DNA of 62,279 nucleotides. It comes from a candidate division WWE3 bacterium. GTDB taxonomy: Bacteria > Patescibacteriota > WWE3 > UBA101185 > UBA10185. The translations under genes and the position numbers were made by a program. Where the stretch lies: positions 1 through 62,279 of the forward strand of contig JAAZNL010000004.1 in assembly GCA_012798315.1 (NCBI GenBank), read 5' to 3'. Shown here piece after piece: positions 700 to 24,395 of the stretch; the stretch's first letter is position 1; every line of letters starts with the position of its first letter. Below the pieces are notes generated by a model that was not told where the DNA came from, searched no databases, and saw only the letters and a program-made list of their open reading frames with translations.

Positions 700-1857
700 A
701 TGAAATACGACTTTGTTGTGGTAATCCACAGGCTTTACGATAAAGGAACAATTAAAAAGGGCGGTGTAGACCTAATTGTGGACTACCTGTTAAAAAGAAA
801 TAACATTATTTTGATGATCGAATACCCGCTTAATTACAGTCAGTCCAATGAGATGCGTGTTTCACAGCTAACTTACGGGGAGACAACCCCGCTTTATATA
901 AGCAGAATTCCCATACGGATTAATGTAATATGCTGGGTGCTGGAGTTTTTCTTAACTTTAACCAATATTTTCAGATTTGCGGGAACCGGTGGAATTATTA
1001 TTACAAGTGACCCGCTAACCACATTGCCTGCAGTTTTGCTTAGAAAGGCAGGAATGTATAAATTTCATTATTACCACTCTGTTGATTATTCAACGGACCG
1101 TTTTAAAAATGTTGTATTAAACGCAATATATTTAAAACTTCTTAAAATTGGTTTAAAAAACGCCGATTTGGTGGGTATTGTAACCAGGCAGGCCGCCCAA
1201 CGATTAACAGGATACGGAGTTAAACGTACAGTATACATTCCCAACAGTTTGGATTTTCATTCACTTGATGGTATTAGAAAACCGATCAACAATAGAGACC
1301 GCAATTCATTGGTTATAACCTGTTCGGATGTCTCACATAAATATTTAATTATGGAACTTGTACAGTTAACGGAAAAACTGAAGGAAATTTATCCTGCGAT
1401 AAAACTAAATGTTGTTGGCAAGTTCGATCCGAAAGACCTATATTGTAAAGAATTACTTACTTATACTGAGAGCCATAATTTACAGGAAAATGTTATTTTT
1501 CACGGACAGGTTATGCGCGAATTAAATTATCAAATTATTGCCCAAAGTTACATTGGGCTGGCATTCTACGACGGATTGCATTCTCATGTTATTTATGGGG
1601 ATGCTATTAAAATCAGAGAATACGCCGCGTTTGGATTGCCTTCAGTTGCTGACACGCACACATATACAGCTGTAGAGATGAATGAAGTAGGTGCAGGATA
1701 TACTGTAGCCAATGTAGAAACGGCTTTTGAAAAGGTGAGAACTTTATTAGATGGTGAACAGGATTATAAATCGCGATCTGAAGCCGCTTTAAAATGGAGT
1801 AAGAAATACGACAAACGAAAACTGCTGGAAAATTTGTATACGCAGTATTTTAAATAA
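700..1857 (+). CDS. glycosyltransferase, GT-B fold (GT4-like), paralog A
   Basis: 385-aa ORF that aligns over its full length with the ORF at 2727-3887. Shared blocks include HRLYD.G..K.GG.D, SDPL...PA..LRKAG..FHYYH..DYS..RFKN, NADLVG, IPNS.DF and IREYAA.G.P. The C-terminal half has a GT-B-like layout. Confidence 0.65.
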   Translation: MKYDFVVVIHRLYDKGTIKKGGVDLIVDYLLKRNNIILMIEYPLNYSQSNEMRVSQLTYGETTPLYISRIPIRINVICWVLEFFLTLTNIFRFAGTGGIIITSDPLTTLPAVLLRKAGMYKFHYYHSVDYSTDRFKNVVLNAIYLKLLKIGLKNADLVGIVTRQAAQRLTGYGVKRTVYIPNSLDFHSLDGIRKPINNRDRNSLVITCSDVSHKYLIMELVQLTEKLKEIYPAIKLNVVGKFDPKDLYCKELLTYTESHNLQENVIFHGQVMRELNYQIIAQSYIGLAFYDGLHSHVIYGDAIKIREYAAFGLPSVADTHTYTAVEMNEVGAGYTVANVETAFEKVRTLLDGEQDYKSRSEAALKWSKKYDKRKLLENLYTQYFK

Positions 1858-2686
1858 GTTCAAACAAAACGTCCCCGCTTTTAAACTCTTCGTCCTGTTC
1901 CAATTCGAAATTTCGGATAAACTTAATAACAACTTTTTTTCCTGATGCGTTTAGTAAATTGGTAACGTCAGAGATTGAATACTCTTCGCTGTTAAGTTCC
2001 ATAAGCAAATAATGTGTGCGCGAAAGTAAATTGGCTGCGCCTTTTAGAGCATTTAGCTCGTACCCTTCGACATCAAGTTTAAAAATATCAATTTGTGGCA
2101 GGTTCTTAAGTTCTTCGATATCGTCTAATTTTCGCATTTCTGCTTGATATGACGGGTTTTTATCGGATATTTTGGAAAAAGACGTTTCTTTAAAATTTAC
2201 GTCCATTCCGATTTTCCTGTTATCTTCACCTACAGCAAATTTATATGTGGTTACATCGTTAATTTTTTCTACATTTTTGACCAAAGCGTTGTAAGCGCTG
2301 TCTACAGGTTCAAAACAAAATATACTTGCGTTTGGGAAAATTTTTTTACACCCCAAAGTAAAATAACCCATGTTGGCACCGACATCTAAGATCACAGGTT
2401 TATTGTTAATATTTAGTTTGGTTAACCAGTAAATTTGTTCGGCAAGCATACAGGAATATCCGACTAAACCGTAAGGTGTTCCGTAGTATATTTTTTCACC
2501 GTTCACATTTATAAACGATTCTGCGGTTTTAAAGGGAATAAAAAAGTGTTTGAACAAAGTGTTGTATTTTCCAAATAAAATGTCCCATTTATCCGACGGT
2601 TTTAAAAAATTTACTCTGGTAATAAATTTATAATCGATTATTAAATTTCTTCGAAAAAGCCATGCCAGCTTGTCAATTATTTTCAT
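1850..2686 (-). CDS. FkbM family methyltransferase
   Basis: Motifs VILDVGANMGYFT (SAM-binding glycine loop), FCFEPV and IDIFKLDVEGYELNALKG are typical of the FkbM family. I placed the start at ATG 2686 (MKIIDKLAW...) rather than the TTG at 2734 used by the ORF track. Confidence 0.8.
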   Translation of the reverse strand: MKIIDKLAWLFRRNLIIDYKFITRVNFLKPSDKWDILFGKYNTLFKHFFIPFKTAESFINVNGEKIYYGTPYGLVGYSCMLAEQIYWLTKLNINNKPVILDVGANMGYFTLGCKKIFPNASIFCFEPVDSAYNALVKNVEKINDVTTYKFAVGEDNRKIGMDVNFKETSFSKISDKNPSYQAEMRKLDDIEELKNLPQIDIFKLDVEGYELNALKGAANLLSRTHYLLMELNSEEYSISDVTNLLNASGKKVVIKFIRNFELEQDEEFKSGDVLFELI

Positions 2687-2726
2687 ATATATAACAATTC
2701 TATTGTAAAATACACTTACTGCAACT

Positions 2727-3887
2727 ATGAACAAAATTGATTACGTAGTGTATATTCATCGTTTGTACGACTCAGGCAGACCTAAGTTAGGTGGTTTAGA
2801 CTATTTAATAGAACATTTGCTGGCAAATGGCAAAAGAGTTTTAGTGGTAGAATCACCTCTTTATCCTCGTCAATACAGCACCATTGTAGTAACTTACCGT
2901 GAAGGTACAGACATACAAAAACTTTATGATTTTGACCTGAGATTTTCCAACGACGCGTTTGTTTGGCTGGTTGGTATTTTGATTGATTTTTATGTTGCGG
3001 CCAGATACAAAACTAAAAATGCATATGTGTTATCGTCTGATCCGCTATCATCTTTTCCGGCCATTGTTTTGAGAAAAGCCGGCTTATTTAGATTTCATTA
3101 TTACCATTGCACTGATTATTCGGAAACACGTTTTAAAAACAAGTTTTTGAACCAACTTTATAGGTGGTTATTATCTTTAAGTATGCGCAACGCGGATTTG
3201 GTAGGGGCAGTCAGTAAAAGAATTCTAGACCAGGCCAGAGAATACAATCCTAAAAATATTACATATATTCCAAATAGTCCCGACTTTGAAAGCTATGCCA
3301 ATTATCGCGTTGCGGTAACTGACCGAAACAAAAAAATGTTAGTTCTTACATGCGCAGGAATTATTCAAAGGTACAACGTATTAGAAACTATCAGGATACT
3401 GGCCGAAGTTTTAAAAAGTATATCCGGCGTCAAATTGACTATCATCGGCAGTACTGATCTTGATAAGGACTATTATTCCAAGGTTTTATCAGAGATTGTG
3501 AAATTAGAACTTCAGGATTCCGTTATTTTTACAGGTTATGTTTCGCGCGAGGCCAATTGTGAAATAATCGCGCGTTCGTATATTGGTATAGCGTTATACG
3601 ATCCTGTAGATTCGTACTCTAAGTACGCCGATCCGTTAAAAATCAGGGAATACGCTGCACTTGGTATACCGTGTGTTTCCGATTTGGTAACAAGCGCCTC
3701 CGAAGAGATGGCAGAAAATAAAGCTGGATACGCGGTTTCCGATTATAAAGACGCAGTGGTAAAAATAGTTACGCTTTTACAGGACAATGAAACATATATT
3801 AAATTTAGTGAGAATGCACTAAAATGGGCTATGGCGTTAGACAAACAAAGGATACTAAAAAAATTAATTGATACCTATTTAGCATGA
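2727..3887 (+). CDS. glycosyltransferase, GT-B fold (GT4-like), paralog B
   Basis: 386-aa ORF paralogous to 700-1857, with the same conserved blocks. Its stop overlaps the next start (ATGA at 3884-3887). Confidence 0.65.
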   Translation: MNKIDYVVYIHRLYDSGRPKLGGLDYLIEHLLANGKRVLVVESPLYPRQYSTIVVTYREGTDIQKLYDFDLRFSNDAFVWLVGILIDFYVAARYKTKNAYVLSSDPLSSFPAIVLRKAGLFRFHYYHCTDYSETRFKNKFLNQLYRWLLSLSMRNADLVGAVSKRILDQAREYNPKNITYIPNSPDFESYANYRVAVTDRNKKMLVLTCAGIIQRYNVLETIRILAEVLKSISGVKLTIIGSTDLDKDYYSKVLSEIVKLELQDSVIFTGYVSREANCEIIARSYIGIALYDPVDSYSKYADPLKIREYAALGIPCVSDLVTSASEEMAENKAGYAVSDYKDAVVKIVTLLQDNETYIKFSENALKWAMALDKQRILKKLIDTYLA

Positions 3888-7157: not shown

Positions 7158-7592
7158 ATGCCTCTTTGGATTCACGAAATTTTACATTTTAGTATTTTTG
7201 CGGTTTTGTATGGCTTTACCGGTCTTTTTTATAAACCATTCAAAGATGTCCGGCACTTTTTAATCGGATTTATGTCCGCTGTCTTGATAGATCTCGATCA
7301 TTTGCTGGATTACTTTTTATTTAATGGTTTTAGCAGGTTTAATCTATTTGAGTTTTTGTCTTGCGACTTTTATAACAAAGCGGGGAAGGCGTTTATTTTG
7401 TTTCACGGATGGGAATATCTGGCGATTATTTTAGTTGTTGCGATATTGCTAAAAAAGACTAAATGGTCTTCGGTTGCATTTGCGTTTGCGCTAGGTATGT
7501 GTGCCCACTTATTATTTGACACTTATGTCAACGGCCTGCCGGATTACTTTTACTTTATTAGCCTGCGCATTTTAAATGGATTCACACTATAA
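7158..7592 (+). CDS. integral membrane protein, function unknown (possibly a DUF457/YdjM-like membrane hydrolase)
   Basis: 144 aa with about 4 hydrophobic segments and an IDLDHLLDY motif plus downstream His residues. The family assignment is tentative. Confidence 0.3.
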   Translation: MPLWIHEILHFSIFAVLYGFTGLFYKPFKDVRHFLIGFMSAVLIDLDHLLDYFLFNGFSRFNLFEFLSCDFYNKAGKAFILFHGWEYLAIILVVAILLKKTKWSSVAFAFALGMCAHLLFDTYVNGLPDYFYFISLRILNGFTL

Positions 7593-8970
7593 TGGAAATA
7601 TGAAAGCCTTTCTTACCATTGTATTGGGCTCCGCCGTTATATTCTTTTGCAGCTGGTTTAGTGTAAGCAGTCTCAAAATTAATAGTTTGGATATTCAATC
7701 CGAGGATACACTTCCCGCAATGTTTTTGCCGTATTCTATAGTCCAAAACGGTAATATTTATCTGGATCGTTTTTATGATCAACTTGTAAAAAAATATCCC
7801 CAGCCCGACGATAAGGATTATAAAAAAGGTAATGTTCCGTTTTATTTAATTAAAGTAGAGAACCACTACCTTTCGGCTTTTACAATTATAGCGCCATTAT
7901 TGGCTTTACCGGTTTATTTTTTTCCGGTGATATTTGGCGTTTTGCCGACCTGGCAAAATTTGATAATTTTATCCCACATGGCCGAAGCGTTGTTAATGGG
8001 GCTATCCGGATGGCTTCTGTATTTGATTGCAACCAAGCGTCTTAATTTAGAAACAAAATTAGCCCGCACGGTTACTGTAATTTATTTATTTGCGACAATA
8101 AACTATGGATTAGTATCACAGGCTTTATGGCAGCACGGGTCTGTGCAGCTGCTTTTATTGACGGGATTATATTTTTATTTATCCGAATCGTATTACATAA
8201 ATTACTTACTATCCGGAATTTTTTGGGGTTTTGCTTTTTTGGCGCGTCCCACGGCGTTATTACCGATTGCGTTGTTTTTTGGTACAACACTTTTAAGTTT
8301 CAGACCGGTAAAAGAAAAGTTATCGAAATTAGTGGTTTTAGCTTTCGGGGCATTGCCGGCTGTTACATTTTTTCTGTGGTATAACAGTACTTTTTATAGA
8401 TCGTTTACAAATCAAGGGTATAGCAGTCAGCTATTTACCAGTTGGCTGGGTGATTTTCCGGTAAGTTTTTTTGGAGTTTGGCTTTCACCAAGCAAAGGAA
8501 TATTAATTTATTCTCCGATTTTAATATTTTCGTTAATCGGCTTTGTTTTAGCATTGAAGAACAAAAATAAGAAAGTAACAGATTTGTATATTATCTCCGG
8601 TTTCGTAGTTTTTATTCACACATTAGTAATTAGTTTTTGGAAACATTGGTATGGCGGCTGGTCATTTGGATATCGGATGAGTTCGGATGTAATACCCTTT
8701 ATGGTCTTAATGATAGTGCCCTTCTTACAATCAGCTTATTACCAAAAATATAAAAAACTTTTTATTTGTCTATTAACGTTATCAATTATAATTCAGATTT
8801 TGTCGTTTATTTTTTATGACGGAATCTGGCACGCCGCGTATGATAAAGGTTTTCACGATACATCCTGGTTATGGTCTGTTAAGGATTCAGAGTTTGTTTT
8901 TAATATAAGAAGAGTACTTGTAAAACTAAATTTGCTAAGTCAGGCGTGTCCAAAATGTTTACCGCAATAA
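7576..8970 (+). CDS. polytopic membrane protein, putative GT-C glycosyltransferase (ArnT/PMT-like)
   Basis: 464 aa with more than 10 hydrophobic helices and an acidic first loop (IQSEDTLPAMFLPY). It sits inside the glycan locus. An alternative start at ATG 7600 would avoid the overlap with the upstream gene. Confidence 0.5.
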   Translation: MDSHYNGNMKAFLTIVLGSAVIFFCSWFSVSSLKINSLDIQSEDTLPAMFLPYSIVQNGNIYLDRFYDQLVKKYPQPDDKDYKKGNVPFYLIKVENHYLSAFTIIAPLLALPVYFFPVIFGVLPTWQNLIILSHMAEALLMGLSGWLLYLIATKRLNLETKLARTVTVIYLFATINYGLVSQALWQHGSVQLLLLTGLYFYLSESYYINYLLSGIFWGFAFLARPTALLPIALFFGTTLLSFRPVKEKLSKLVVLAFGALPAVTFFLWYNSTFYRSFTNQGYSSQLFTSWLGDFPVSFFGVWLSPSKGILIYSPILIFSLIGFVLALKNKNKKVTDLYIISGFVVFIHTLVISFWKHWYGGWSFGYRMSSDVIPFMVLMIVPFLQSAYYQKYKKLFICLLTLSIIIQILSFIFYDGIWHAAYDKGFHDTSWLWSVKDSEFVFNIRRVLVKLNLLSQACPKCLPQ

Positions 8971-10619
8971 AGAATAACAGACATCTTTTAGCAGTGATCG
9001 TCGCGTTTTTATTATTTGTTGTAATAGTAGGCGTAAAAGGAAATTTTCCGACAAACGATGATTGGTATTTTGTCCGGCAGGTAAAAGCTTTTGATTTGGG
9101 AATATTTAAACTTCACGCGAAAGTACTTCCTATTTTTATTGTTCAGGGTTTTTTGGGTTTATTGTGGGGTACGTTGTTTGGGATAGGATTCGATAGTCTC
9201 CGCATTCTAACTTTATTGGTAACGCTTTTTAGCGGAATCATTCTATATAGAACTATATTACTGGTAACGCCACAAAAAAGGTTAGCTGGTTTGGGCATGT
9301 TTATCTATTTGTTCAATCCTATTGTTTTATCATCCGCCTTTACATTTATGACTGAAAATTATTATTTGCTGTTTATGGTGTGCTCGGTATATTTTGCGGT
9401 TAAATTTTTCAATTTAAATAGAACCAAAGAGTTTTATTTGGCCTTGTTGTTTATGCTTTTAACTTCCTTAGTTAGGCAAACTGGTTTGTTTTTATTTTTA
9501 GCTTTTTTCGCTGCAGCATCTTGGAAAAACGTAAAAAATATATCTTGGCGAAAAACATTGTTTTTTTTCTTTTCACTTACGGTTACGATCTTGCTAATAG
9601 TCTTTTGGCCACGTTATCAAACGTCAGTTATAGATAAATCGATAAATTTGTCGTCTGGCTATAACGTAATTCTCGAACGATTAAGTGTTTATTTATTAGC
9701 TATACCAATGCTCGTGTTTTGGATATCTCCCTTGTTTATTATTAAAAAGCCATCTGTAGGGCGGTTGTTTGATGTGTCAGTTTTAACTTGGCTTTTTTCA
9801 TATATTGTATTCCGCGTGGACATTTTTCCTTTAGGAAGCGTTTTCTATTTTGAAAGTTTACATATTAAGTCGGGGTTCAGACACAGTTTAAGTATTTTTG
9901 ATAATGTTCCTGCAAAAATTGTTATGTCGGTCTATCTTGGTTTGCTGATTTCGGTTTCCGCTATTTACGTATTTAATAAAATTAAAAAAATTCACATAAA
10001 TAACCGAGTAACTGTATTTTTGTGGTTATGTGTTGTGGGTGTATTAACACCGATTTTGTTGACCCCGACAGTCTATGACCGATATTTTACGCCTTTAATT
10101 GTATTTACCGTTTTGCTGTTAATACCGGAAATCAAGTCGCAGTCCAAAATATTTACTTTGGGAATTTTAATTTTCGCGTTTATATCTGTTGTTAATGTTT
10201 ACGAATTTATAATTGTTAAGTCACTTAAGCATAAGTTATACGAAAGTCTTTTGGCAGATTCTACTGTTAATGTTACCGAAAGGGATATTTACATAGACGA
10301 TACTTACAGTAAATACTTATACGCCGAGGAACAAGAGGACTATGCGGGGCGCGGCCAAAACTTGCCTGTGGGGTTAGTGCACAAGTGTTTTATACAGCAG
10401 TATACGATTGATGGCCCTTTTACTTTATTTATAAAAAATTTAGAGGATAAAGTCGAAAAAAGGATTAAAAACCCTTCGGTTTACGGCTCTACACCGCCAA
10501 TCCGGAATATCAGGATATCCAAACATTTGAATGAACTTAACCGTAACGAAATGTACTTTTCGCCTTTATATTCTATAATTGGAAAGACAGCTTTTGTGGG
10601 AAGCTGGTGCGATAAATGA
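8946..10619 (+). CDS. polytopic membrane protein, putative GT-C glycosyltransferase (GT39/ArnT-like)
   Basis: 557 aa. It has an N-terminal transmembrane helix followed by an NDDWYF acidic loop motif, multiple further helices and a soluble C-terminal ~130 aa. An alternative ATG start lies at 8955. Confidence 0.5.
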   Translation: MSKMFTAIKNNRHLLAVIVAFLLFVVIVGVKGNFPTNDDWYFVRQVKAFDLGIFKLHAKVLPIFIVQGFLGLLWGTLFGIGFDSLRILTLLVTLFSGIILYRTILLVTPQKRLAGLGMFIYLFNPIVLSSAFTFMTENYYLLFMVCSVYFAVKFFNLNRTKEFYLALLFMLLTSLVRQTGLFLFLAFFAAASWKNVKNISWRKTLFFFFSLTVTILLIVFWPRYQTSVIDKSINLSSGYNVILERLSVYLLAIPMLVFWISPLFIIKKPSVGRLFDVSVLTWLFSYIVFRVDIFPLGSVFYFESLHIKSGFRHSLSIFDNVPAKIVMSVYLGLLISVSAIYVFNKIKKIHINNRVTVFLWLCVVGVLTPILLTPTVYDRYFTPLIVFTVLLLIPEIKSQSKIFTLGILIFAFISVVNVYEFIIVKSLKHKLYESLLADSTVNVTERDIYIDDTYSKYLYAEEQEDYAGRGQNLPVGLVHKCFIQQYTIDGPFTLFIKNLEDKVEKRIKNPSVYGSTPPIRNIRISKHLNELNRNEMYFSPLYSIIGKTAFVGSWCDK

Positions 10620-11824
10620 ACACGAACCAAAGTCCGAAATATAACATCATAATGCTGTCCAACCAATTGTGGTCATATCCTTTGTGGACAAACAAAAAAC
10701 ACGTATCTACCAGGTTAGCCAAACTCGGACATAACGTGCTTTTTGTTGATCCACCAATAAACACGGGAAGATTGTTCGCAAGGCAGCTGCTTAAAGGAAA
10801 GTGGACATTAAAAAGATTAATCGAAAAAACCACTAAGGAAGACGAAATAACAGTTTTTTCACCTTTAGATTATTCTCCAAATCACGAAAAAATGGCAGCC
10901 CAACACGTAGAAACAATCCGACGGCTGGAAGACAAATTGTTTGATTCTTCCCGAAAGACTATACTTTGGATTTATCACATGGAAATTCAGGGATTAGAAC
11001 ACTATGTGGAAGATTTACCTTACGATATTCTGGTTTATGACTGTGTAGATAATTATGCAGGCTTTCCGAAATACGATACTTCTCAAAAAAAAGCAGCGAT
11101 AAACGCACAGGAAAAATATCTGGCATCAAAGGCCGATATCGTATTCGCTACTGCTCCCGGTCTGGTAGAAAAACTTAAAAAATATAATCCTAATGTGCAT
11201 TTCACACCAAATGTTGGTGATTATGAAAGATTTATTAAAGCGCGCGACCTTAGGGATCAGTTACCAGAAGATATAGCATCTATCCCGAGGCCCAGAATAG
11301 GATTTACCGGCGCAGTTGATAGCTATAAGTTTGACAAAGAACTTGTGCGCAAAATTGCGGAAGATTATCCAGGGTATTCATTTATTTTGATCGGGCCTAT
11401 GGCGTTGGAGGACAGAGAGGCGACTGTTAACGAACTTGGCTTAAATGGCCTTAGGAATATTTATTTTTTGGGTACAAAAGAGTACTCTGATATGCCAAAA
11501 TATTACGCTGGTTTCGATGTGACGATAATTCCTTATCTGTTAAATGACTACACTGTTGGCGGATGTTTCCCTGTAAAATTTCATGAAGGATTGGCGGCTG
11601 GTGTTCCAAGTGTCGTAACTAACTTACCGGCGTATGCCCCTTTTGCTGATGTTTGTTATATATCAAAAAGCGCAAATGAGTTTTCTCAAAATATACGAAG
11701 GGCGCTCGAGGAAGATTCCGAGGCAAAAGTGAAAGAAAGACAACGTGTTGCTAAGGATAATAATTGGGAAGGCAAGGTCGCCAAAATGCTAGCATTAATT
11801 CAAAATTTTATTGATAACCAATGA
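10616..11824 (+). CDS. glycosyltransferase, GT-B fold (group 1-like)
   Basis: 402 aa with a C-terminal FPVKFHEGLAAGVPSVVTNLP block resembling the GT4 E-x7-E region. The start overlaps the upstream stop (ATGA). Confidence 0.7.
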   Translation: MNTNQSPKYNIIMLSNQLWSYPLWTNKKHVSTRLAKLGHNVLFVDPPINTGRLFARQLLKGKWTLKRLIEKTTKEDEITVFSPLDYSPNHEKMAAQHVETIRRLEDKLFDSSRKTILWIYHMEIQGLEHYVEDLPYDILVYDCVDNYAGFPKYDTSQKKAAINAQEKYLASKADIVFATAPGLVEKLKKYNPNVHFTPNVGDYERFIKARDLRDQLPEDIASIPRPRIGFTGAVDSYKFDKELVRKIAEDYPGYSFILIGPMALEDREATVNELGLNGLRNIYFLGTKEYSDMPKYYAGFDVTIIPYLLNDYTVGGCFPVKFHEGLAAGVPSVVTNLPAYAPFADVCYISKSANEFSQNIRRALEEDSEAKVKERQRVAKDNNWEGKVAKMLALIQNFIDNQ

Positions 11825-17100: not shown

Positions 17101-17124
17101 GACATATTGATGCTGCATCAATGA
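14104..17124 (+). CDS. fusion protein: O-antigen ligase/polymerase-like (Wzy_C) N-terminal half plus ArnT/PMT-like GT39 (GT-C) C-terminal half
   Basis: The N-terminal half (about aa 1-450) carries LVLTNSRTSLLMDG and VPAHTIWGELIAETGIIGL, both typical of the Wzy_C family. The C-terminal half carries IPWDDAIYAKIAKNM...YEKPPLFMWLVAMYFKLFG...SRMAMTDV, typical of ArnT/PMT_2 enzymes. Confidence 0.65.
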   Translation: MLNTILELSAFIGILGLGYILVLKNFNLTIYILLLGSVLLHKELFSFYRWDLLPIRALMFGVLLAALTKFALYVKTNKKFPGFQLFIDQPFLLMLTILWVVRGLSILFSFNLEASVLLFGFFTTVVALGILLLGYLKGQPEKALSYLKFYIYVAFGLSLFGFVQYFYHFKTGKVIGSFWVIPGNIPRVGSLFWDVNHYGALIAALVPVSAVLVLIEKKALHKILFAVITVSLSISLVLTNSRTSLLMDGVAVAIFVGILFLRKFGRKGVLFVMLLFVFLSLPPILEYNRKGSAFREKVKQYLNYRVDSSDSHFLLILGAYQIFEEYPILGGGYGSFFEHFGKTQAGPLYYGRDPAALTNRVPAHTIWGELIAETGIIGLSVFILLIGIMTGSLGYLALRSTNKSTYLLSSAMLGVVLGWMVSGIFYSYNAEFFWLIMFLFFGFGYAELHREFTLNQVVSYFAKSVIPFATVFFIAAFLIFVKLGSVSLIPWDDAIYAKIAKNMVYTNEYITQNWVPGKVWYEKPPLFMWLVAMYFKLFGFTDFAAKLPSALAGLGTVMLVFVFAKRFFGKTAGFIAAFSLVTTVQYLFYSRMAMTDVLCAFFMTASLAIYYSKRFDSQLNFLTILISGLFVGLAVMTKGVVGLIPLAVMGLYEIYLLFSRQQEALGKSVLHLFGVLLVSAVIFMPWHYRMFQLYGNSFLNNYIGYHVFARATEDIENKEQPIYWYIIILKVSMRLWFISLLGALPYSVVSLYKSKNTKTVNSLAFILIWAGFIFAFFSVPTSKLIWYIIPLYIPLAVLNGYFVSSIYNHISQKFELLQNSVVKFLLFYIFGIVILGYTFLVRNMIYVPDSTGSIARLLKLKDTSFGIEQFAYLDRVDLPLAYYYTDGKFKIIDFNAEKPERIPQVGFDDKLVMLTKKGRFVDKLPQYDYYATVVKEDGDYILWYYESKRNYYTSALEDANKRWAELSATITQKYKVVINAPLEMQQEYSLLVDKVNEYSDILMLHQ

Positions 17125-18314
17125 TATCGGGCTATTGTTACACCGGTTACAATTAATGCTGTAGTAGCAGCTAGTAAATTAGCATATGCCAGGCCCTCAA
17201 TACCGAACTGTCTGCTTAGTATCAATGCTGCTATCATAAAAACAACTAATTTACTTACGTTTACCCAAAGTATATTTTTAGTTTGATTTTCAACAAGAAA
17301 ATAGTTTTCCATAAATGTATGAATTGCCGAAAAGGCAGAAGCAAAAATTAATATGTCTAAAACTTTAATAGAACCCTCGAACTTTTCTCCAAATACGAGT
17401 TTTATAAAAACACCGGAAACAGCAATTGCCAAAAAAGCGAGAATTATTATTCCAAACGAAATTAAAATTGTTTCTCCGATATCGTAGGTTTTTTTCTGTC
17501 CTTTAAGTCTGGCATTTTTCGGCAGTAGAACAGTAAAAATCGACAAGGATACTAACGCAAAAATATTACTGATTTTGCTGGCCAGTGAAAAAGTTCCGAC
17601 ATCGTTGTAATTACGAACATACTTAGTAATTGTGTTATTAATCGCGGGCCACGCTTCCTGAACGAGTTGAGAAAATCCGGAAGGTAACCCCTTTACAATA
17701 AAAGTACGGACATGAGTAAAGTTAAATTTAAAATGTTTCGCGCCTTCCGGAAGGAATGGAAATAAAATTACATCCGCAAAAATGGATAATGAGAAAAAAG
17801 CGAAGGCGTTTACCAAGTTTAAATGTATGGTATTTAGCAATACAAAAACTGCTGCAATGGTTTTAACTAATGCAGGTAACGTATTTAACAAAATTAATTG
17901 GGTATATTTTTCTTCTTTTTGAAAATGAGCATAAAAAGTAAAGTTGATTGTGTAGGCTACTAAGCCGGCCACAAAAATTAAACTTAACCACACGTTTGTT
18001 GGAAAAAAATAGTTAACAATTCCAAGTGAGACAAGAGCGACAACGCTTAACAAAATTATCTTTAAACTATGAAAAGTCTCGGTTATGGATTTATCATCTT
18101 CATTTGTAAGGTATTTTGTAACGTAAATTGAGTTAGAGCCAAAATCGATTAGTTTAACGCACACTAATAAAATGCTCGTAAGTAAGGCGTATTTGCCAAA
18201 ATCTTCAAGTGAAAGCGTTTTAGCCACAACTGCTAAAAAGAAGAATCCTATTCCTGCATTTAAAATGTTTCCGCCCGACACAAATGCTATTTTTACAAAA
18301 GATTTCCTAAACAC
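17118..18314 (-). CDS. oligosaccharide/polysaccharide flippase (Wzx-like, MOP superfamily)
   Basis: 398 aa with about 12 hydrophobic helices. The N-terminus, FVSGGNILNAGIGFFFLAVVAKTLSLEDFGKYALL, is typical of polysaccharide biosynthesis (Wzx) proteins. It uses a GTG start. Confidence 0.75.
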   Translation of the reverse strand: MFRKSFVKIAFVSGGNILNAGIGFFFLAVVAKTLSLEDFGKYALLTSILLVCVKLIDFGSNSIYVTKYLTNEDDKSITETFHSLKIILLSVVALVSLGIVNYFFPTNVWLSLIFVAGLVAYTINFTFYAHFQKEEKYTQLILLNTLPALVKTIAAVFVLLNTIHLNLVNAFAFFSLSIFADVILFPFLPEGAKHFKFNFTHVRTFIVKGLPSGFSQLVQEAWPAINNTITKYVRNYNDVGTFSLASKISNIFALVSLSIFTVLLPKNARLKGQKKTYDIGETILISFGIIILAFLAIAVSGVFIKLVFGEKFEGSIKVLDILIFASAFSAIHTFMENYFLVENQTKNILWVNVSKLVVFMIAALILSRQFGIEGLAYANLLAATTALIVTGVTIARYH

Positions 18315-18351: not shown

Positions 18352-18357
18352 AAGCGC

Positions 18358-19494
18358 ATGAAAACAATTGGAATAGATGGTCGTTTTTATGGGGAAGCCG
18401 GTCCGGGACGCTACGTAAAGAATATTGTAACTTTTCTGGAGAAAGTTGATAAAGATAATAAATATATAGTTTTTTTAAGGCCAAAAGGAATAGAAGAATA
18501 TAAACCATCAAATCCGAACTTTACCAAACAGATAGCCGATTACAAATGGTATTCGTGGGGTGAGCAAATCGGATTTCTGGTCAGACTTTTGTCAAACAAG
18601 CTGGATTTATTTTATGTTCCCCATTTCAACTTTCCGGTTTTGTATCCAGGTAAACTCGTAACCGCAATACCCGATTTAATAATGCATACATACAGCACTG
18701 AAAAAGGCACGACCTTGCCTAAACCATATTTTAGATTTAAAAAATTTGTCTATAAATTAGTAGTGCATTTAGCAGTTAAGCGTTCGTTTAAAGTCATAGT
18801 TCCTTCTTTTGATGTTCTTAATGATTTTCTAAAAGTGTTTCCTCAATATACGAGAAATAAATATATCGTTGCCGTCGAAGGAGTTGATCCGGCATTCCTT
18901 AATCAGGAATATTCAGAAGAAGGTATAAATACAAAAGTTGAGGGAAATTATCTTTTATATGTCAGCAGCATGTACGAACACAAAAACGTACCACGCCTTG
19001 TAAGAGCCTTTAAAATACTTCGTGATAAATACAAATTGGATCTCAAGCTAGTGTTAGCGGGCAAAAAAGATAAGTATTCGCTGGCGGTTGAAGATTTGGT
19101 GAATTCACTTGGTTTACAGGATTATGTCCTTATACCAGGTAACAAAGCTCCGGTGAGTGATAATGAGTCTAAATATTACCGTAAACACGCCTTATTGTAC
19201 GTTTTTCCATCATTAAAAGAGGGTTTTAGTTTAACACCTATGGAGGCTCAAAGCTTCGGTTTGCCATGTATAATTTCGGATATTCCTGTGCACAGAGAAA
19301 TATATAAAGACACGGTGTCTTATTTTGATCCCGGGAACGAAGAAGATATAGCAGCAAAGATCGCCGCACTTTTAGCAAATCAACAGTTGCAAAAAGAATT
19401 AATAGAAAAAGGTTTAAATCATTACAAAAAATTTGATTGGATTAAAACTGCTGAAATAACTAAAAGTGTCTTTGATGACGCTCTAAAAAATTAG
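18358..19494 (+). CDS. glycosyltransferase family 4
   Basis: Carries the block VFPSLKEGFSLTPMEAQSFGLPCIISDIPVHREI. Confidence 0.85.
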   Translation: MKTIGIDGRFYGEAGPGRYVKNIVTFLEKVDKDNKYIVFLRPKGIEEYKPSNPNFTKQIADYKWYSWGEQIGFLVRLLSNKLDLFYVPHFNFPVLYPGKLVTAIPDLIMHTYSTEKGTTLPKPYFRFKKFVYKLVVHLAVKRSFKVIVPSFDVLNDFLKVFPQYTRNKYIVAVEGVDPAFLNQEYSEEGINTKVEGNYLLYVSSMYEHKNVPRLVRAFKILRDKYKLDLKLVLAGKKDKYSLAVEDLVNSLGLQDYVLIPGNKAPVSDNESKYYRKHALLYVFPSLKEGFSLTPMEAQSFGLPCIISDIPVHREIYKDTVSYFDPGNEEDIAAKIAALLANQQLQKELIEKGLNHYKKFDWIKTAEITKSVFDDALKN

Positions 19495-20624
19495 TTTATT
19501 TTGTGAATATAATCTATTAATTTTTTTGCGGAGTCGAACCATGTGTATCCTTGTGCGTAAACTGCACCCTTTTCTGTCATAGACTCCGTACTTTCTTCTA
19601 CCAGTTTTATAATTGCTTCCGACATTCCTTTTGTATCCGTTGGATTAGCGTAAAATACGCTATCTTTCCCAAGTTGTTTATGCGGCGGAATTGAAGAAAC
19701 GGCACAGGGTATTTTAGATGTCATCGCCTCTAATAAAGTTAGGCTGAAGCCTTCTTCAAACGAAAAATTTACAAAACCTTTTGCACTCGCAAAAAGAAGT
19801 GGTAAATTTTCCTGAGGAATCCATCCTAAATATATAACGGATTCGCTTAAGTTTTCTTTTTTGATGCTTTCAAAAATATCTTCATAATTCCATCCCTTCT
19901 TTCCAACTAAAACCAAATTAATTTCTTCCACTTTTTTACTGTTTTTCCGGGCTAAACTAAAAGCCCTTATTAATCCGACCACGTTTTTTCTCGGTTGTAG
20001 AGTTGATACAAAAAGCAGGTAATTGTTTTTTATACCGTATGTATCTTTAATCTTTTGTTTTTGTTGAATATCGTAGTTTTTGCGAAAATCGTCTGAAACA
20101 CCTTCGTGTATCACACGTATATTATTGGAACTTGAAACCAACCCGGCATTTAATATTTGTTCTTTAGTGTATTCGGAAGGAACTACTATCAGTCTAGCTG
20201 TATTACACGCATATTTTAGCAAATTCCATTGAAGTAAAAACCTGAAACTTATTTTGGAAAACTGTTTGTTGGATTTAATTTCTAATCCATGAACCATAAT
20301 TACAACTTTAGTATTTTTAGGATATATAACCGGTACGGTATGTTCCGGACTAAAATAAAACTCAGGAGAATCTTTAAATAATTGTCGGCTTAAGCCATTA
20401 TGTGTCCAGGACAGGCTACTTTGTATTTGTGTAAATTTAACATACGGAAAATCGGTATGAAGTTTATCCAGTAAAGAATCTTTTTTTAAATCCCGATAAT
20501 AAAGCAAAAAATCCTGATCTTTAAAATCTTTAAATAATGTTCTGTACAAATTATAAGTAAAATATTCAGGACCTGCCGGCTCTAAAGATTCAAGTATTTT
20601 ACCGTTTAGTGCTATAGCCATCAT
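19491..20624 (-). CDS. glycosyltransferase family 4
   Basis: Carries the block NFSFEEGFSLTLLEAMTSKIPCAVSSIPPHKQ. Two adjacent ATG codons lie at the start. Confidence 0.85.
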   Translation of the reverse strand: MMAIALNGKILESLEPAGPEYFTYNLYRTLFKDFKDQDFLLYYRDLKKDSLLDKLHTDFPYVKFTQIQSSLSWTHNGLSRQLFKDSPEFYFSPEHTVPVIYPKNTKVVIMVHGLEIKSNKQFSKISFRFLLQWNLLKYACNTARLIVVPSEYTKEQILNAGLVSSSNNIRVIHEGVSDDFRKNYDIQQKQKIKDTYGIKNNYLLFVSTLQPRKNVVGLIRAFSLARKNSKKVEEINLVLVGKKGWNYEDIFESIKKENLSESVIYLGWIPQENLPLLFASAKGFVNFSFEEGFSLTLLEAMTSKIPCAVSSIPPHKQLGKDSVFYANPTDTKGMSEAIIKLVEESTESMTEKGAVYAQGYTWFDSAKKLIDYIHKIN

Positions 20625-20660
20625 AGTGATTATACCTTGTGCTATAGTATTTCCATAACT

Positions 20661-21785
20661 ATGAAAATCGCAGTAGTTTCAGATGATCTTATTCAACACG
20701 GTGGACAGGAACGTGTGACCGATGCTTTTTTAGATATTTTTCCTACTGCAGTGCTTTATTCAAGTGCAATTTCACCTGAATGGAAAACATATCTAAAGTC
20801 AAAGAATGTAAAATTTCACGTATCTTTCGCGGATAAAATTCCGTTCTTTTATAAACTCTATCGTTATTACGCGCCTTTTTTAATGCACAACTTAGCATTT
20901 GAGAGTTTTAATTTAAGTGAATATGATCTGGTTCTATCCAGTTCTTCCCGTTTTGCGCACACGATTTTAACGAAACCAAAGACAGTTCATGTTTGTTATA
21001 TGCATTCTCCCGGGCGTATGTTTTGGCTGACTGATGATTATTTTAAAAACGAATCGTATGGAATTTTAAAACCATTAAAGAAATTTGCCAAAAGCTTTTT
21101 ATCTTACTTTTTGTTATATCAACGCATGCTGGACTATGTCGCAGCCCAAAGAGTTAATGTCTTTTTGACTAATTCGGAAGTAGTAAAAAAAAGAATCAAA
21201 AAATTTTATGGCAGAGAAAGTAGTGTAATTCACCCTTTTATTGATCTTAAACCATTTAAAAAATTAGTTGCAAAAGATGGTGATTACTTTTTGGTTGTCA
21301 CACGCCTTGCCGCCTGGAAACGGGTTGATATAGCAATTGAGGCCTGTATGGATTTAAATTTAAAGTTAAAAATTATAGGTGATGGTCCCGACATGCCGCG
21401 TTTGGTAAATTTAGCGAAAAAATCCCCTTTAATTGAATTTATGGGAGCAGTACCCGATGATGTGAAATTAGATACTTTAGCGGGTTCTAAAGCGTTAATA
21501 CAAACACAGTATGAGGATTTTGGAATAGTACCTTTAGAAGCCAATGCCACAGGGAAAGTGGTTTTAGCATACGGCAAAGGCGGCGTGCTAGAAACAATGC
21601 AAAAAGGTAAAACCGCGGAATTTTTTTACAGTCAAAATGCAGAATCAGTAAAACAATTGTTGATTAGCTTTGATAGTACCAGGTATGATATAAAGGAGTG
21701 CACAAAAAATGCTGAAAGATTCGATTTAAGCGTGTTCAGACAAAATGTGTTAAATTTCATAAACAGCATTGGCAGTGTATACTGA
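20661..21785 (+). CDS. glycosyltransferase family 4
   Basis: It begins MKIAVVSDDLIQHGGQERV and carries YEDFGIVPLEANATGKVVLAYGKGGVLET. I placed the start at ATG 20661 rather than the TTG at 20637. Confidence 0.8.
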   Translation: MKIAVVSDDLIQHGGQERVTDAFLDIFPTAVLYSSAISPEWKTYLKSKNVKFHVSFADKIPFFYKLYRYYAPFLMHNLAFESFNLSEYDLVLSSSSRFAHTILTKPKTVHVCYMHSPGRMFWLTDDYFKNESYGILKPLKKFAKSFLSYFLLYQRMLDYVAAQRVNVFLTNSEVVKKRIKKFYGRESSVIHPFIDLKPFKKLVAKDGDYFLVVTRLAAWKRVDIAIEACMDLNLKLKIIGDGPDMPRLVNLAKKSPLIEFMGAVPDDVKLDTLAGSKALIQTQYEDFGIVPLEANATGKVVLAYGKGGVLETMQKGKTAEFFYSQNAESVKQLLISFDSTRYDIKECTKNAERFDLSVFRQNVLNFINSIGSVY

Positions 21786-21797
21786 TAGAGAAAATTT

Positions 21798-22442
21798 ATG
21801 GACGTATACTCAATTTTAAAGAGACTAATGGACATTTTCGGCGCATTGGTGGGAATAATTATATTTTCGCCGTTATTAATTGGCGGTGCATTATGGGTAA
21901 AAATAGTATCTCCTGACGGCCCAATTTTTGCTGATATTAAACCCAGAGTAGGCAAAAATAGAGCACCTTTTAAATTTTATAAATTCCGTTCTATGGTCAT
22001 GAACGGATACGAGTTTTTGAAAAATAATTATCCGGAATTGCACAAAAAATACGAAGAAAATAATTACAAATTGAGTGCAGATGAAGACCCGAGATTACTT
22101 AAGGGGGCGAAGTTTGTCAGGCATTACAGTATTGATGAAATGCCTCAGTTTTTTAATGTGTTGAAAGGAGATATGAGTATAGTGGGACCCCGGGCTTACT
22201 ATTTTTATGAAGTTGAAGAACAGTGTCAGCGACACCCTGAGGCAATTCCTTATATGGAAGAGGCACTAAAAGTAAAACCCGGTATTACCGGCTTATGGCA
22301 GGTAAGCGGTAGATCCCAGGTAGGTTTTTTGGATAGAGTAAAAATGGACGCATTCTATGCTAAAAAGCGTTCTATACTGTATGATTTACTAATCATACTG
22401 AAAACCCCGTATGTAGTTTTAACAGGCAAAGGAGCCTTCTAA
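21798..22442 (+). CDS. small (PglC/WbaP C-terminal-type) polyprenyl-phosphate glycosyl-1-phosphate transferase (bacterial sugar transferase family)
   Basis: 214 aa with a single N-terminal hydrophobic helix, followed by PIFADIKPRVGKNRAPFKFYKFRSM, DEMPQFFNVLKGDMSIVGPRA and GITGLWQVSGRS. Confidence 0.9.
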   Translation: MDVYSILKRLMDIFGALVGIIIFSPLLIGGALWVKIVSPDGPIFADIKPRVGKNRAPFKFYKFRSMVMNGYEFLKNNYPELHKKYEENNYKLSADEDPRLLKGAKFVRHYSIDEMPQFFNVLKGDMSIVGPRAYYFYEVEEQCQRHPEAIPYMEEALKVKPGITGLWQVSGRSQVGFLDRVKMDAFYAKKRSILYDLLIILKTPYVVLTGKGAF

Positions 22443-22448
22443 AAAAAT

Positions 22449-24395
22449 ATGAACAATTCTAGATTTTGGAATCAGGGAACTACGGCTGCAAGTGCTAAAA
22501 GTCCTAAACAGCCTTCAGTTAATAAAAATTTAATGAAGGGGCTTGGAGCAACCGGGCTGATATTAATCACGGTTGTAGCTTTGGTTTTGGGAACTGGGTA
22601 TATTTTTATTGTACGTCCCGCTTTAGCATTAAGCGCTAATCTCGAATCCCTAAAAAAAGACGGCACTGCCATCTCCGATTCGTTGAGAAAAAGAGATCTT
22701 GTAGAACTTGAGAAAAATTTAAAAAAGACAGAATCCGATTTAGAACAGGTTCGAAAAGATCGGGAAGACAAATTTGGCTGGGCAAAAAATTTAAAGATAT
22801 TTAAAATTAACGAGTTTTATGGGGATTCGGACAGACTTATTAACGCAGGTTATTACAGTATTGATGCTTTGCGTGAAATAGCCAAGGTGGTAACTCCTTT
22901 TGCGGATGCCGCTGGGTTACGGGTTAAAGAAGAAGATGTCGTTTCGGAAGAACAAGGCCTGATGGAAGCTTTCCAAAGCTGGGTTACATTAATGCCCGAA
23001 GTAGCCGGTCAAATGGATGGGGTAATAGAAAAGGTAGCCAAAATAGGTGATGAACTCCAGCCCATAGATACTTCAAAATATCCCGAAAAAATCCGTGGTG
23101 TAGAAGTAAGGTCTACTTTGGATTTTGTTAAAAACACGCTATCCCAGGCAAATGATTACGGCCCCGATCTTAAACAGGCCCTAACTATTTTTCCGAGACT
23201 ATTAGCTGTTGGGACAACTGAAAAACGTTACATGATGATTATGCAGAATGACAAAGAACTACGTCCTACCGGTGGATTCATGACTAATTACGCCACATTT
23301 AAAATTAAAGATGGCCTACTTAGCTCGGATTTTTCTTCTAAAGATATGTATAGTATTGATCTGACGCTGGACATTATAGATGCCACATACGATTTTCCTG
23401 ACGCTCCTCAGCCCTATCCTAAGTATCTAAAAGTTGAAAGATGGTATGCGCGTGATATGAACTTTTCACCGGATTTTGTCACTTCTATGGATCAGTTACT
23501 AAAGTTCTATAAAATGGCAGGTAATATTAACCCTGTTGAAATAAAGCCTGTTGATGGCATTATTGGAATCGACACGCAGGTTATAAGCGAACTGCTTGAT
23601 GTTACAGGTCCTGTTACGGTGAATGGGGTTACGTACAATAGTGAAAACGTTGTATATGAGCTTGAACGAATTGCGTCTCTTGAATTACGCGAACAGCAAA
23701 ATCGAAAACGGGTATTAGGTGATTTGATGGAGGCAATGTTAATTAATGTTTTCGAATCCGACAAAAATTTGTGGTCAAAACTTATAGATAAAGGTATTGA
23801 TTTGGCGATGAGAAAACACATACAGGCGTACGTCTTTGACCCGGAGGCTCAGGCACTAGTAGAAAAGTATGGTGTTGGCGGAAGAATTACCGAAGAAACT
23901 AAAGGTGATTACTCAATGATTGTTTCTACAAATCTTGGCGGAGACAAGACAAACTGGTTTGCTTCTAAAAAAGTTACTGAAACGCTAGAAAAACAAGGTG
24001 ACAAGTGGATTAAGACTGTGAAATTAGACTATTCCTACCCTGAACCTGCAGGCGATTTTGCGCCCTTTGTTAAGAGGTTTAGAGATTGGGTTCGTGTTTA
24101 CGCTCCGGTAGGTTCTACTTTTATCGGTGTTGAAGGTTCCGAAGACGGCACTATGACCGACCAGGAGAGGAACAAAGTTTGGTTTAGCGGTTATGTTGAG
24201 TTAGGTCCTAATGAAACTAAAAGCATGACTTTTAAGTATGAATTGCCTAAAGACGCGGTTACCGGTGATAACTACGTATTGGAACTTCAAAAACAGGCAG
24301 GTATTGATAAAGAACAATATACAATAGTTGTTAATGGTAAAAGTCAGGTTATAGAACTTACAAAGGATACCAAAGTAACCGTAAAGCTTAACTAG
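22449..24395 (+). CDS. membrane-anchored extracytoplasmic protein, DUF4012-like
   Basis: 648 aa with one N-terminal transmembrane helix. The central motif MIMQNDKELRPTGGFMTNYATFKIKDG resembles the N.aE.R.tGG signature I associate with DUF4012. This family assignment is from memory. Confidence 0.55.
   Translation: MNNSRFWNQGTTAASAKSPKQPSVNKNLMKGLGATGLILITVVALVLGTGYIFIVRPALALSANLESLKKDGTAISDSLRKRDLVELEKNLKKTESDLEQVRKDREDKFGWAKNLKIFKINEFYGDSDRLINAGYYSIDALREIAKVVTPFADAAGLRVKEEDVVSEEQGLMEAFQSWVTLMPEVAGQMDGVIEKVAKIGDELQPIDTSKYPEKIRGVEVRSTLDFVKNTLSQANDYGPDLKQALTIFPRLLAVGTTEKRYMMIMQNDKELRPTGGFMTNYATFKIKDGLLSSDFSSKDMYSIDLTLDIIDATYDFPDAPQPYPKYLKVERWYARDMNFSPDFVTSMDQLLKFYKMAGNINPVEIKPVDGIIGIDTQVISELLDVTGPVTVNGVTYNSENVVYELERIASLELREQQNRKRVLGDLMEAMLINVFESDKNLWSKLIDKGIDLAMRKHIQAYVFDPEAQALVEKYGVGGRITEETKGDYSMIVSTNLGGDKTNWFASKKVTETLEKQGDKWIKTVKLDYSYPEPAGDFAPFVKRFRDWVRVYAPVGSTFIGVEGSEDGTMTDQERNKVWFSGYVELGPNETKSMTFKYELPKDAVTGDNYVLELQKQAGIDKEQYTIVVNGKSQVIELTKDTKVTVKLN

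Follow-up and report, generated by a model that had tools for sequence, protein, structure and literature searches.

What kind of glycan is assembled by a gene cluster that carries a priming enzyme, a flippase, and four large membrane proteins resembling GT-C glycosyltransferases? This question is raised by contig JAAZNL010000004.1, which comes from a bacterium of candidate division WWE3 (Patescibacteria) and was analyzed over a stretch of 62,279 nucleotides (the window). The Patescibacteria, or candidate phyla radiation (CPR), account for a large share of bacterial diversity and live attached to other cells, and to our knowledge almost nothing is known about their surface chemistry. Nineteen tightly packed genes, 16 of them on the plus strand, run from the left window edge to position 24395 (Table 1), and a priming phosphoglycosyltransferase, a Wzx flippase, and a Wzy-like domain are all encoded in this one cluster. 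The core genes are conserved in order across WWE3, and one of them encodes a fusion of a Wzy_C domain to an ArnT-like GT-C domain. We propose, at about even odds, that the cluster makes a wall-associated branched heteropolysaccharide assembled via a polyprenyl-diphosphate-linked oligosaccharide. WWE3 genomes have been described as rich in glycosyltransferases, which suggested polysaccharides, glycoproteins, or a glycosylated S-layer (PMC3812714). The present data turn that general remark into a defined target, a lineage-conserved gene set with a fusion protein, a compact GT-C enzyme, and AftD-like enzymes.

The open reading frames (ORFs) of the window were assigned to families by Pfam and NCBIfam scans, and Pfam hits were listed at E ≤ 0.01; statements that a family is absent from the window refer to the ORFs scanned against Pfam. 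The ORF list contains every gene at the position given in an earlier note made from the sequence alone. The fusion protein divides into a Wzy_C domain (residues ~1–455), an ArnT/PMT_2-like domain (residues ~456–860), and a C-terminal soluble part. The Wzy_C (PF04932) match covers residues 229–383 and its 47.2 bits exceed the gathering threshold of 31.7, and residues 473–691 match both PMT_2 (79.8 bits) and PMT (44.1 bits). A PDB sequence search aligned residues 471–803 with ArnT (5ezm) at E 2e-22, and no match was found for the Wzy_C half. In this alignment D492 falls on the Asp-Glu pair in the first loop of CmArnT, and E522-K523-P524 falls on its FEKPP motif; we take the corresponding CmArnT residues to be D55 and E84/K85. 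All four fusion residues are invariant in 28 aligned fusions, and so are R242, R295, R305, D307, H312, and the H364-T365-x9-G375-x2-G378 motif of the Wzy_C half. Both halves look catalytically competent. The ArnT-like half scores 95.8 bits against an ArnT equivalog cut-off of 567, and by profile it is a member of the ArnT/PMT_2 family and not an ArnT orthologue.

At least 120 clusters share the three Pfam hits of the fusion, and all of the named ones are from WWE3 or Patescibacteria. A HMMER search of 1.84 billion representative proteins returned 502 at E ≤ 1e-30; among the best 150 of these, about three dozen are full-length fusions and the others are fragments or stand-alone relatives of either half. 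One locus (L143; JGI Ga0117905_1000016, a 285-kb contig, positions 2641–10691) has the two halves split into neighboring genes, in the order glycosyltransferase family 4 (GT4), Wzy_C (460 residues), PMT_2 (497 residues), GT4, a second Wzy_C (428 residues), and a Wzx-type flippase, with an AsnB gene nearby. Because the split genes adjoin in the same order as the fused domains, the two activities of the fusion probably cooperate; alternation between split and fused halves would be expected of two enzymes acting on one substrate. The pair of forms offers a natural handle on the cooperation of ligase/polymerase-type and ArnT-type membrane enzymes.

Three further polytopic proteins stand alone in the cluster, and together with the fusion they have about 6–19 hydrophobic segments each in a hydropathy scan. 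The largest of the three has ~10 N-terminal transmembrane (TM) helices, ~550 residues of extracytoplasmic beta-sandwiches, and a C-terminal TM helix. A word-indexed search found about ten full-length homologues. The AlphaFold2 (AF2) model, built from 16 sequences (pLDDT 84.4, pTM 0.81), matched mycobacterial AftD best in a Foldseek search, with three cryo-electron microscopy entries at the top (best E 8e-17; 6wby/6w98), followed by STT3, PglB, AftA, EmbC, and Pmt4. The beta-sandwich domains also match glycan-binding modules (SGBP-B, 7kwb; accessory domains of GH101 enzymes). In 11 homologues the first-loop residues E31-E32 do not vary, and five distant homologues have an Asp or Glu aligned at or beside this position. 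The AftD family PF11847, like every other Pfam family, found no match in the window protein at E ≤ 0.01, and it is carried by the distant homologues P0011, P0012, and P0015 only. By its modeled structure this protein resembles AftD in fold, and it is not counted among the members of the AftD family. A 72-residue ORF whose start codon overlaps the stop codon of the AftD-like gene follows it here and in two related loci (L004 and L060).

The first gene of the conserved core encodes a compact protein of 464 residues (M464). Its 349 homologues, of which the named ones belong to WWE3 or Patescibacteria, include some that match PMT_2 (PF13231), and M464 itself matches NF047440 at E 1e-14. The S42-E43-D44 motif, which places an acidic pair in the first loop, is invariant in 28 sequences. 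The top Foldseek matches of the AF2 model (pLDDT 81.6, pTM 0.86) are all GT-C enzymes, namely PglB, ALG12, AglB, PimE, STT3, and AftA/B, each with a Foldseek probability of 1.0, and ALG3/9. Comparison with hhalign gave a weak link between the fusion profile and the M464 profile (73%, E 3e-5) and no signal between the fusion profile and the third stand-alone protein, PMT557. The start of M464 may lie eight codons downstream, because the collection gives the window protein as 456 residues. All five PMT557 homologues match PMT_2 (best 8e-11), and the N37-D38-D39-W40 motif is invariant. PMT557 occupies this position in L004, L062, L064, and L097 only, and it is a variable insert within the core. 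Its GT-C assignment is the weakest of the four, drawing on the hidden Markov model match and the acidic first-loop motif. PDB sequence searches gave no meaningful match for any of the three stand-alone proteins or for the PMT557 profile. The earlier note had named a transporter reading as the result that would overturn its GT-C assignments; the PMT_2 matches, the AF2/Foldseek matches to AftD and PglB, and the ArnT alignment to 5ezm indicate that all four polytopic proteins are GT-C-type and not transporters.

Eight GT4 (Glycos_transf_1) genes were found, one fewer than previously counted, and there is no unassigned ORF of at least 100 residues that could be a ninth. GT4a and GT4b are paralogues (39% identity over 384 residues). 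GT4c, GT4d, and GT4e belong to the core and were found in 67, 61, and 58 loci with median identities of 57%, 45%, and 54%, respectively; the best NCBIfam match of GT4c is TuaH-like (8e-27, below cut-off). GT4h is conserved in 20 loci (median identity 46%). Weak Pfam hits to "GT4-conflict" models, which could be read as a defense system, are secondary to far stronger generic GT4 matches, and that reading was rejected. The FkbM methyltransferase, the Wzx flippase, and the small phosphoglycosyltransferase were each recovered by Pfam or NCBIfam under their expected family. The phosphoglycosyltransferase also matches TIGR03025 (E 2e-65) over the catalytic C-terminal part, and it is 93% identical in L004 and 53–63% identical in other WWE3 loci. 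The DUF4012 protein that follows has one N-terminal TM helix (residues 37–55) and no meaningful match in a PDB sequence search; its family is reported to be enriched in CPR and Gram-positive bacteria (PMC6744442). The AsnB-like gene is truncated by the left window edge, full-length orthologues (586–600 residues) adjoin the same GT4 (GT4a) in relatives, and the AsnB-GT4a pair recurs in most of 55 metagenome loci. In the 2.4 kb left of AsnB in L060 there are one methyltransferase and two ORFs without a Pfam match. The 144-residue membrane protein upstream of M464 gave weak Pfam hints only (Zn_dep_PLPC, 0.029; DUF6122, 0.038) and is possibly a metal-dependent membrane hydrolase. It is 74% identical in L004 and L060, and it lies upstream of the M464 homologue in eight other WWE3 loci. 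Neither it nor the 72-residue membrane protein, both of them additional to the genes named in the earlier note, matches any GtrA model.

The conservation of the cluster was examined by scanning one genome per GTDB species with the M464 family alignment, which gave 78 loci, including complete CP006914 RAAC2_WWE3_1. Gene order was counted in the 50 species loci with at least 6.8 kb downstream of the M464 homologue. The exact order M464-GT4c-GT4d-GT4e-fusion is present in 43 of them and three more differ solely by the PMT557 insert, as in the window, so that the core order holds in 46 of 50. L105 (CAZEBU010000001.1) is the sole full-flank species locus in which the M464 homologue stands alone without the downstream core genes. 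The nearest relative, L004 (fusion 72% identical), has the same order from the AftD-like gene, in which the left end of its sequence falls, to the phosphoglycosyltransferase. Two loci with 45–47% fusion identity (L140 and L141) keep the right half together with its strands: Wzx(−), GT4(+), GT4(−), GT4(+), phosphoglycosyltransferase, and DUF4012. The block from the fusion through the phosphoglycosyltransferase is shared by L004, L140, and L141 over 45–72% fusion identity, and in all three the GT4 in the GT4f position is on the plus strand and that in the GT4g position on the minus strand. Wzx follows the fusion gene and converges with it in 36 of 47 related loci, and DUF4012 directly follows the priming enzyme in L096, L124, L140, and L141. 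These data extend the conservation of the core to a whole candidate division, and the order check that had been suggested for this cluster comes out in favor of conservation.

Around this core the content varies. The left part lacks FkbM and the second GT4 in L060, a close relative, so the FkbM gene is a variable insert. The slot after Wzx holds rmlD, rmlA, rmlB, and rmlC plus a GT2 gene in RAAC2-type genomes, and the clusters of relatives include, besides rmlABCD, GT2 genes that encode C-terminal membrane helices. Such helices on a GT2 enzyme are typical of polyprenyl-phosphate-sugar synthases. The absence of GT2 and nucleotide-sugar genes, correctly observed in the earlier note, is peculiar to this window. 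AftD-like paralogues number one or two in other genomes, which also carry additional large polytopic ORFs without an assigned family, and at least two large polytopic ORFs lie within 10 kb upstream in 36 of the 40 loci with enough upstream flank. Counted with the profiles built here, a full-size locus has two to five GT-C/Wzy_C-type genes. The idea that this cluster is unusually rich in GT-C enzymes stands insofar as four recognizable ones are at the upper end of this range, and it does not stand as a singularity, since at least four were likewise recognized in 8 of the 34 related loci of full size. In RAAC2_WWE3_1 (L068), two polytopic ORFs of 1244 and ~525 residues (3298–7032 and 7375–8952) lie just upstream of the core; they have at least seven TM segments and match neither Pfam nor the GT-C profiles built here. 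Similar ORFs occur in L077, L095, and L115, and ORFs of this type may represent further unrecognized families of membrane glycosyltransferases.

Neighboring genes in the cluster either overlap, by 1–25 bp, or lie no more than 43 bp apart. The right border had been drawn correctly at the DUF4012 stop codon, since the next genes encode RecO and a class II aminoacyl-tRNA synthetase. Farther right are MraZ/MraW, penicillin-binding proteins, glycolytic genes, UvrABC, and MraY-FtsW-MurG-FtsQAZ, and this DNA is ordinary chromosome. The GC content is 0.362 in the cluster compared to 0.385 in the remainder of the window. The term "island" was misleading: over positions 7576–24395, WWE3 genomes share the gene order and for the most part the strands as well. 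Because the synteny is lineage-wide and the GC content nearly equal, the cluster is not a strain-specific island, and acquisition as a horizontally transferred island was rejected on the same two grounds. The cluster is vertically inherited and lineage-typical, with a fixed core and variable slots. Three minus-strand genes (1850–2734, 17118–18314, and 19491–20624) are embedded among plus-strand neighbors. Their ends overlap the adjacent genes by 4–8 bp or leave gaps of 12 bp (beside GT4g) and 43 bp (beside Wzx), which leaves essentially no intergenic space for promoters. A consensus scan for promoters and terminators over 16000–26000, which takes in two of the three, gave counts not clearly above those of shuffled sequence. 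tRNA and Rfam scans of the window gave no match.

Family membership suggests how these proteins would work together. The small phosphoglycosyltransferase would load a sugar-1-phosphate onto polyprenyl phosphate at the inner membrane face, and up to eight GT4 enzymes would lengthen the chain from nucleotide sugars. The FkbM enzyme would methylate the chain and the AsnB-like enzyme would amidate a carboxyl group. A core unit of about five sugars is suggested because four GT4s are conserved with the core. Wzx would flip the lipid-linked oligosaccharide to the outer face, where the Wzy_C half of the fusion would join units into a polymer, which we prefer, or transfer them to an acceptor. The ArnT-like half and the three other GT-C enzymes would add sugars from polyprenyl-monophosphate-sugars or perform the final transfer, which would yield a branched heteropolysaccharide located on the cell wall or within it. 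The scheme of building inside, flipping, and acting outside had been put forward before, and it fits both the gene set and the Gram-positive systems (PMC10821137). Functional coupling is indicated by the packed, overlapping genes, the conserved order, and the phosphoglycosyltransferase end that stays linked to the M464 end. Because the enzymes are highly conserved, the glycan is probably a conserved structural one and not a variable capsule.

Several observations weigh against this scheme. Neither the window nor the annotated flanking genes of L001, L140, and L141 yielded a Wzz or other polysaccharide co-polymerase (PCP), a tyrosine kinase, or a LytR-CpsA-Psr (LCP)-type ligase, so the usual partners of polymerization and wall attachment are missing there. 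Neither a polyprenyl-phosphate-sugar GT2 synthase nor a small GtrA-type flippase is present in the window, and the absence of the synthase leaves the donors for four GT-C enzymes unaccounted for there. Enzymes of the ArnT/PMT_2 type normally take monophosphate-linked single sugars, and transfer of a whole chain by the fused ArnT-like domain is speculative. Sequence also does not separate polymerase, ligase, and O-oligosaccharyltransferase roles for the Wzy_C half, PF04932 covering WaaL ligases and PglL/PilO O-oligosaccharyltransferases alike (PMC3643930).

The closest characterized logic is that of the lactococcal pathway for rhamnose-containing cell wall polysaccharide (Rha-CWPS) and pellicle (WpsA-J, CsdCD/CflA; PMC10821137). 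There, too, several cytoplasmic glycosyltransferases make an undecaprenyl-phosphate oligosaccharide inside a single-membrane host, and a Wzx-type protein flips it; the flipped unit is polymerized, GT-C-fold enzymes transfer it, and a further GT-C decorates it outside (PMC10821137). The lactococcal pathway starts with a GT2 (WpsA/B) and a monophosphate link (PMC10821137), whereas the WWE3 cluster would start with a phosphoglycosyltransferase and a diphosphate link. The WWE3 cluster also differs in the fusion of Wzy_C to a GT-C domain, in having four GT-C-type genes, one of them AftD-like, and in lacking the rhamnan/ABC-transporter branch; the likeness meant here is one of logic. In Bifidobacterium longum 105-A, another single-membrane bacterium with a Wzx/Wzy-type cluster for exopolysaccharide or capsular polysaccharide, the priming phosphoglycosyltransferase adjoins DUF4012 as it does in WWE3, but there is a separate Wzz and the ORF table lists no GT-C gene as far as cpsF (PMC5412050). 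The GtrA/GtrB/GtrC, CsbB/GtcA/YfhO, and GacI/J/K/L systems use a GT-C enzyme to add single sugars outside from polyprenyl-phosphate-sugars (PMC8035078, PMC10821137). By analogy this is the likely mode of action of M464 and PMT557, although the window lacks the GT2 synthase and small flippase of these systems, and candidate GT2s occur in relatives only.

Individual enzymes are related to known ones at a distance. The AftD-like protein shares with mycobacterial AftD (6w98/6wby) the polytopic GT-C module, the large extracytoplasmic beta-sandwiches, and the C-terminal TM helix, and the Emb/Aft set resembles the WWE3 cluster in directing several GT-C enzymes at one envelope glycan. The two proteins are 9–10% identical (TMq 0.47), the WWE3 protein is ~300 residues shorter, and it comes from another phylum with another envelope and no sign of a decaprenyl-phospho-arabinose pathway or of an acyl carrier protein bound to it. 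The fusion has the first-loop Asp and the (F/Y)EKPP motif in common with ArnT (5ezm), the GT83 enzyme that transfers 4-amino-arabinose to lipid A, but the ArnT-like half sits behind a Wzy_C domain, and the sequenced WWE3 genome is reported to lack genes for lipid A and lipopolysaccharide (LPS) synthesis (PMC3812714). WaaL/PglL enzymes have the essential residues R215, R288, and H338 (PMC3643930), and the invariant R242, R295/R305, and H364 of the fusion lie in this region and may correspond to them. The Wzy_C half differs from these enzymes in being joined to a GT-C domain, and it has no PglL_A match; the WWE3 organism lacks both an outer membrane and a lipid A-core acceptor.

The product might instead be a glycoprotein. 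A single oligosaccharide unit of up to about nine sugars would then be moved en bloc to an S-layer protein, a pilin, or a sortase-anchored protein, the Wzy_C half acting as an O-oligosaccharyltransferase and the PMT_2 domain and other GT-C enzymes adding single sugars to protein or glycan. We consider this unlikely. The best NCBIfam match of the Wzy_C half is a "putative O-glycosylation ligase" (TIGR03097, E 1.5e-10, below cut-off), and PF04932 includes PglL/PilO beside WaaL (PMC3643930), but the PglL_A model (PF15864) is absent from the Pfam hits of the fusion. PMT_2 and PMT are families of protein O-mannosyltransferases, yet the ArnT-like half resembles the lipid-modifying ArnT, and no PMT structure came within E 0.01 in the PDB search. 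The missing Wzz/PCP and LCP genes would suit single-unit transfer, and a glycosylated S-layer in WWE3 was already raised by Kantor et al. 2013 (PMC3812714). Many pglL/pilO loci have a target gene beside the transferase (PMC3643930), and no such candidate is present here. The heteropolysaccharide is favored because the AftD-like enzymes have glycan-binding-like domains, which point to polysaccharide acceptors, because the cluster contains no candidate target-protein gene, and because the PglL motif is absent.

A membrane-anchored lipoglycan, comparable to lipooligosaccharide, lipomannan/lipoarabinomannan, or glycosylated lipoteichoic acid, appears rather improbable. The Wzy_C half would then ligate the glycan to a glycolipid as WaaL does, changes to the lipid anchor would be made by the ArnT-like half, and the chain would be extended and branched outside by AftD-like and PimE-like GT-C enzymes. 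WaaL does belong to the Wzy_C family, but an hhalign comparison between the fusion profile and E. coli K-12 WaaL showed no signal. Fusion of a ligase to a lipid-modifying GT-C would be sensible if both acted on one lipid acceptor, ArnT itself acting on a lipid head group, yet there are no anchor-lipid synthesis genes in the cluster and the RAAC genomes, including WWE3, lack genes for lipid A and LPS synthesis (Kantor et al., PMC3812714). The fold matches AftD, AftA/B, EmbC, and PimE all come from mycobacterial lipoglycan or arabinogalactan synthesis, although with TM-scores of 0.3–0.5 and 9–15% identity they show a shared GT-C scaffold only. The lack of a wall ligase among the window ORFs and in the annotated flanks of relatives would also fit an anchor in the membrane. 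That the cluster is several independent modules with different products (AsnB/GT4/AftD-like, M464 to fusion, and Wzx/GT4/phosphoglycosyltransferase) is very unlikely. In its favor, the left part (AsnB to AftD-like, and PMT557) varies while the rest is fixed, variable inserts separate Wzx from the last GT4s, many loci have the AsnB-GT4 pair but not the core, and L105 has M464 by itself. Against it, the cluster has just one priming enzyme, one flippase, and one Wzy_C domain, its genes overlap or abut throughout, and the phosphoglycosyltransferase and M464 ends stay linked over at least 45% sequence divergence.

A bolder reading deserves mention, although we regard it as doubtful. The core could make an envelope glycoconjugate that is universal, and perhaps essential, in WWE3, a new "common antigen" or structural wall polymer, with the fusion as a new type of bifunctional enzyme that both joins lipid-linked glycan units and transfers or modifies them in one complex, and the polymer could assume some of the wall's structural function. 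Such partial replacement is thinkable because the division and cell wall (dcw) genes of the window have no Mur ligases between mraY, ftsW, and murG and no complete peptidoglycan pathway was identifiable in WWE3 (Kantor et al. 2013, PMC3812714). A common structural glycan, should the product prove to be one, would be a candidate for host attachment, phage recognition, and lineage-specific labeling. The dcw genes are arranged in two blocks. The first (27115–30596) contains MraZ, MraW, a small ORF, and an FtsI-type penicillin-binding protein, and the second (51076–59045) a MurA-like protein, MraY, FtsW, MurG, FtsQ, FtsA, and FtsZ; no murC, murD, murE, or murF ligase gene lies between mraY, ftsW, and murG in the window.

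The component families and the overall logic of the cluster are already known. Wzx-dependent assembly and decoration outside by GT-C enzymes are established in Gram-positive bacteria and mycobacteria, and no new principle is involved here. The novelty lies in an enzyme that joins Wzy_C to an ArnT-like domain, in how many GT-C enzymes, and of which kinds, share one Wzx-type cluster, and in a core conserved throughout a candidate division. A literature search that did not extend to all journals found no paper on this locus or on a Wzy_C::PMT_2 fusion, in agreement with the earlier description of the cluster as uncharacterized.

Table 1 Genes of the WWE3 cluster in the 62,279-nucleotide window, with the match or feature by which each was assigned
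Gene product	Position	Strand	Evidence
AsnB-like glutamine-dependent amidotransferase, C-terminal part	18..698	+	Pfam Asn_synthase E 1e-34, profile positions 122-354
GT4a	700..1857	+	Pfam Glycos_transf_1 31.1 bits
FkbM-family methyltransferase	1850..2734	-	Methyltransf_21 E 3e-13; TIGR01444 85.5 bits vs cut-off 37.7
GT4b	2727..3887	+	Pfam Glycos_transf_1 47.6 bits
AftD-like GT-C glycosyltransferase, 1017 residues	3884..6937	+	AlphaFold model fold match; no Pfam hit
Small membrane protein, 72 residues	6937..7155	+	ORF; GGGAGG precedes start
His/Asp-rich small membrane protein, 144 residues	7158..7592	+	H6, H10, D45-x-D47-H48
Compact GT-C glycosyltransferase M464, 464 residues, first conserved-core gene	7576..8970	+	AF2 fold; homologues
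PMT_2-type GT-C glycosyltransferase PMT557, 557 residues (weakest GT-C assignment)	8946..10619	+	Pfam PMT_2 29.7 bits vs 26.1
GT4c, conserved core	10616..11824	+	Pfam Glyco_trans_1_4 44.2 bits
GT4d, conserved core	11821..12969	+	Pfam Glycos_transf_1 106.6 bits
GT4e, conserved core	12977..14101	+	Pfam Glycos_transf_1 75.5 bits
Wzy_C + ArnT/PMT_2-like GT-C fusion, 1006 residues	14104..17124	+	Pfam Wzy_C 47.2 bits, PMT_2 79.8 bits
Wzx/MOP-family flippase	17118..18314	-	Pfam Polysacc_synt 52 bits vs 28.2
GT4f	18358..19494	+	Pfam Glycos_transf_1 106.7 bits
GT4g	19491..20624	-	Pfam Glycos_transf_1 89.2 bits
GT4h, directly 5' of priming enzyme	20637..21785	+	Pfam Glycos_transf_1 76.9 bits
Small polyprenyl-phosphate phosphoglycosyltransferase (priming enzyme), 214 residues	21798..22442	+	Bac_transf E 5e-53
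DUF4012 protein, large extracytoplasmic part	22449..24395	+	Pfam DUF4012 79 bits

Two genes outside the cluster could serve it. A phosphoglucomutase/phosphomannomutase is encoded at 32312–33697 (+), 8 kb to the right, and a DedA/VTT-domain membrane protein at 37936–38634 (+); the latter, we assume, may recycle polyprenyl phosphate. Farther along, LexA (39179–39808, −) lies beside a DUF5680 gene (38705–39175, −), and uvrB runs divergently from it. In the region 39907–50421, uvrA and uvrC are interleaved with a class A penicillin-binding protein (42059–44287) and a transglutaminase-like membrane protein (47316–49031, −).

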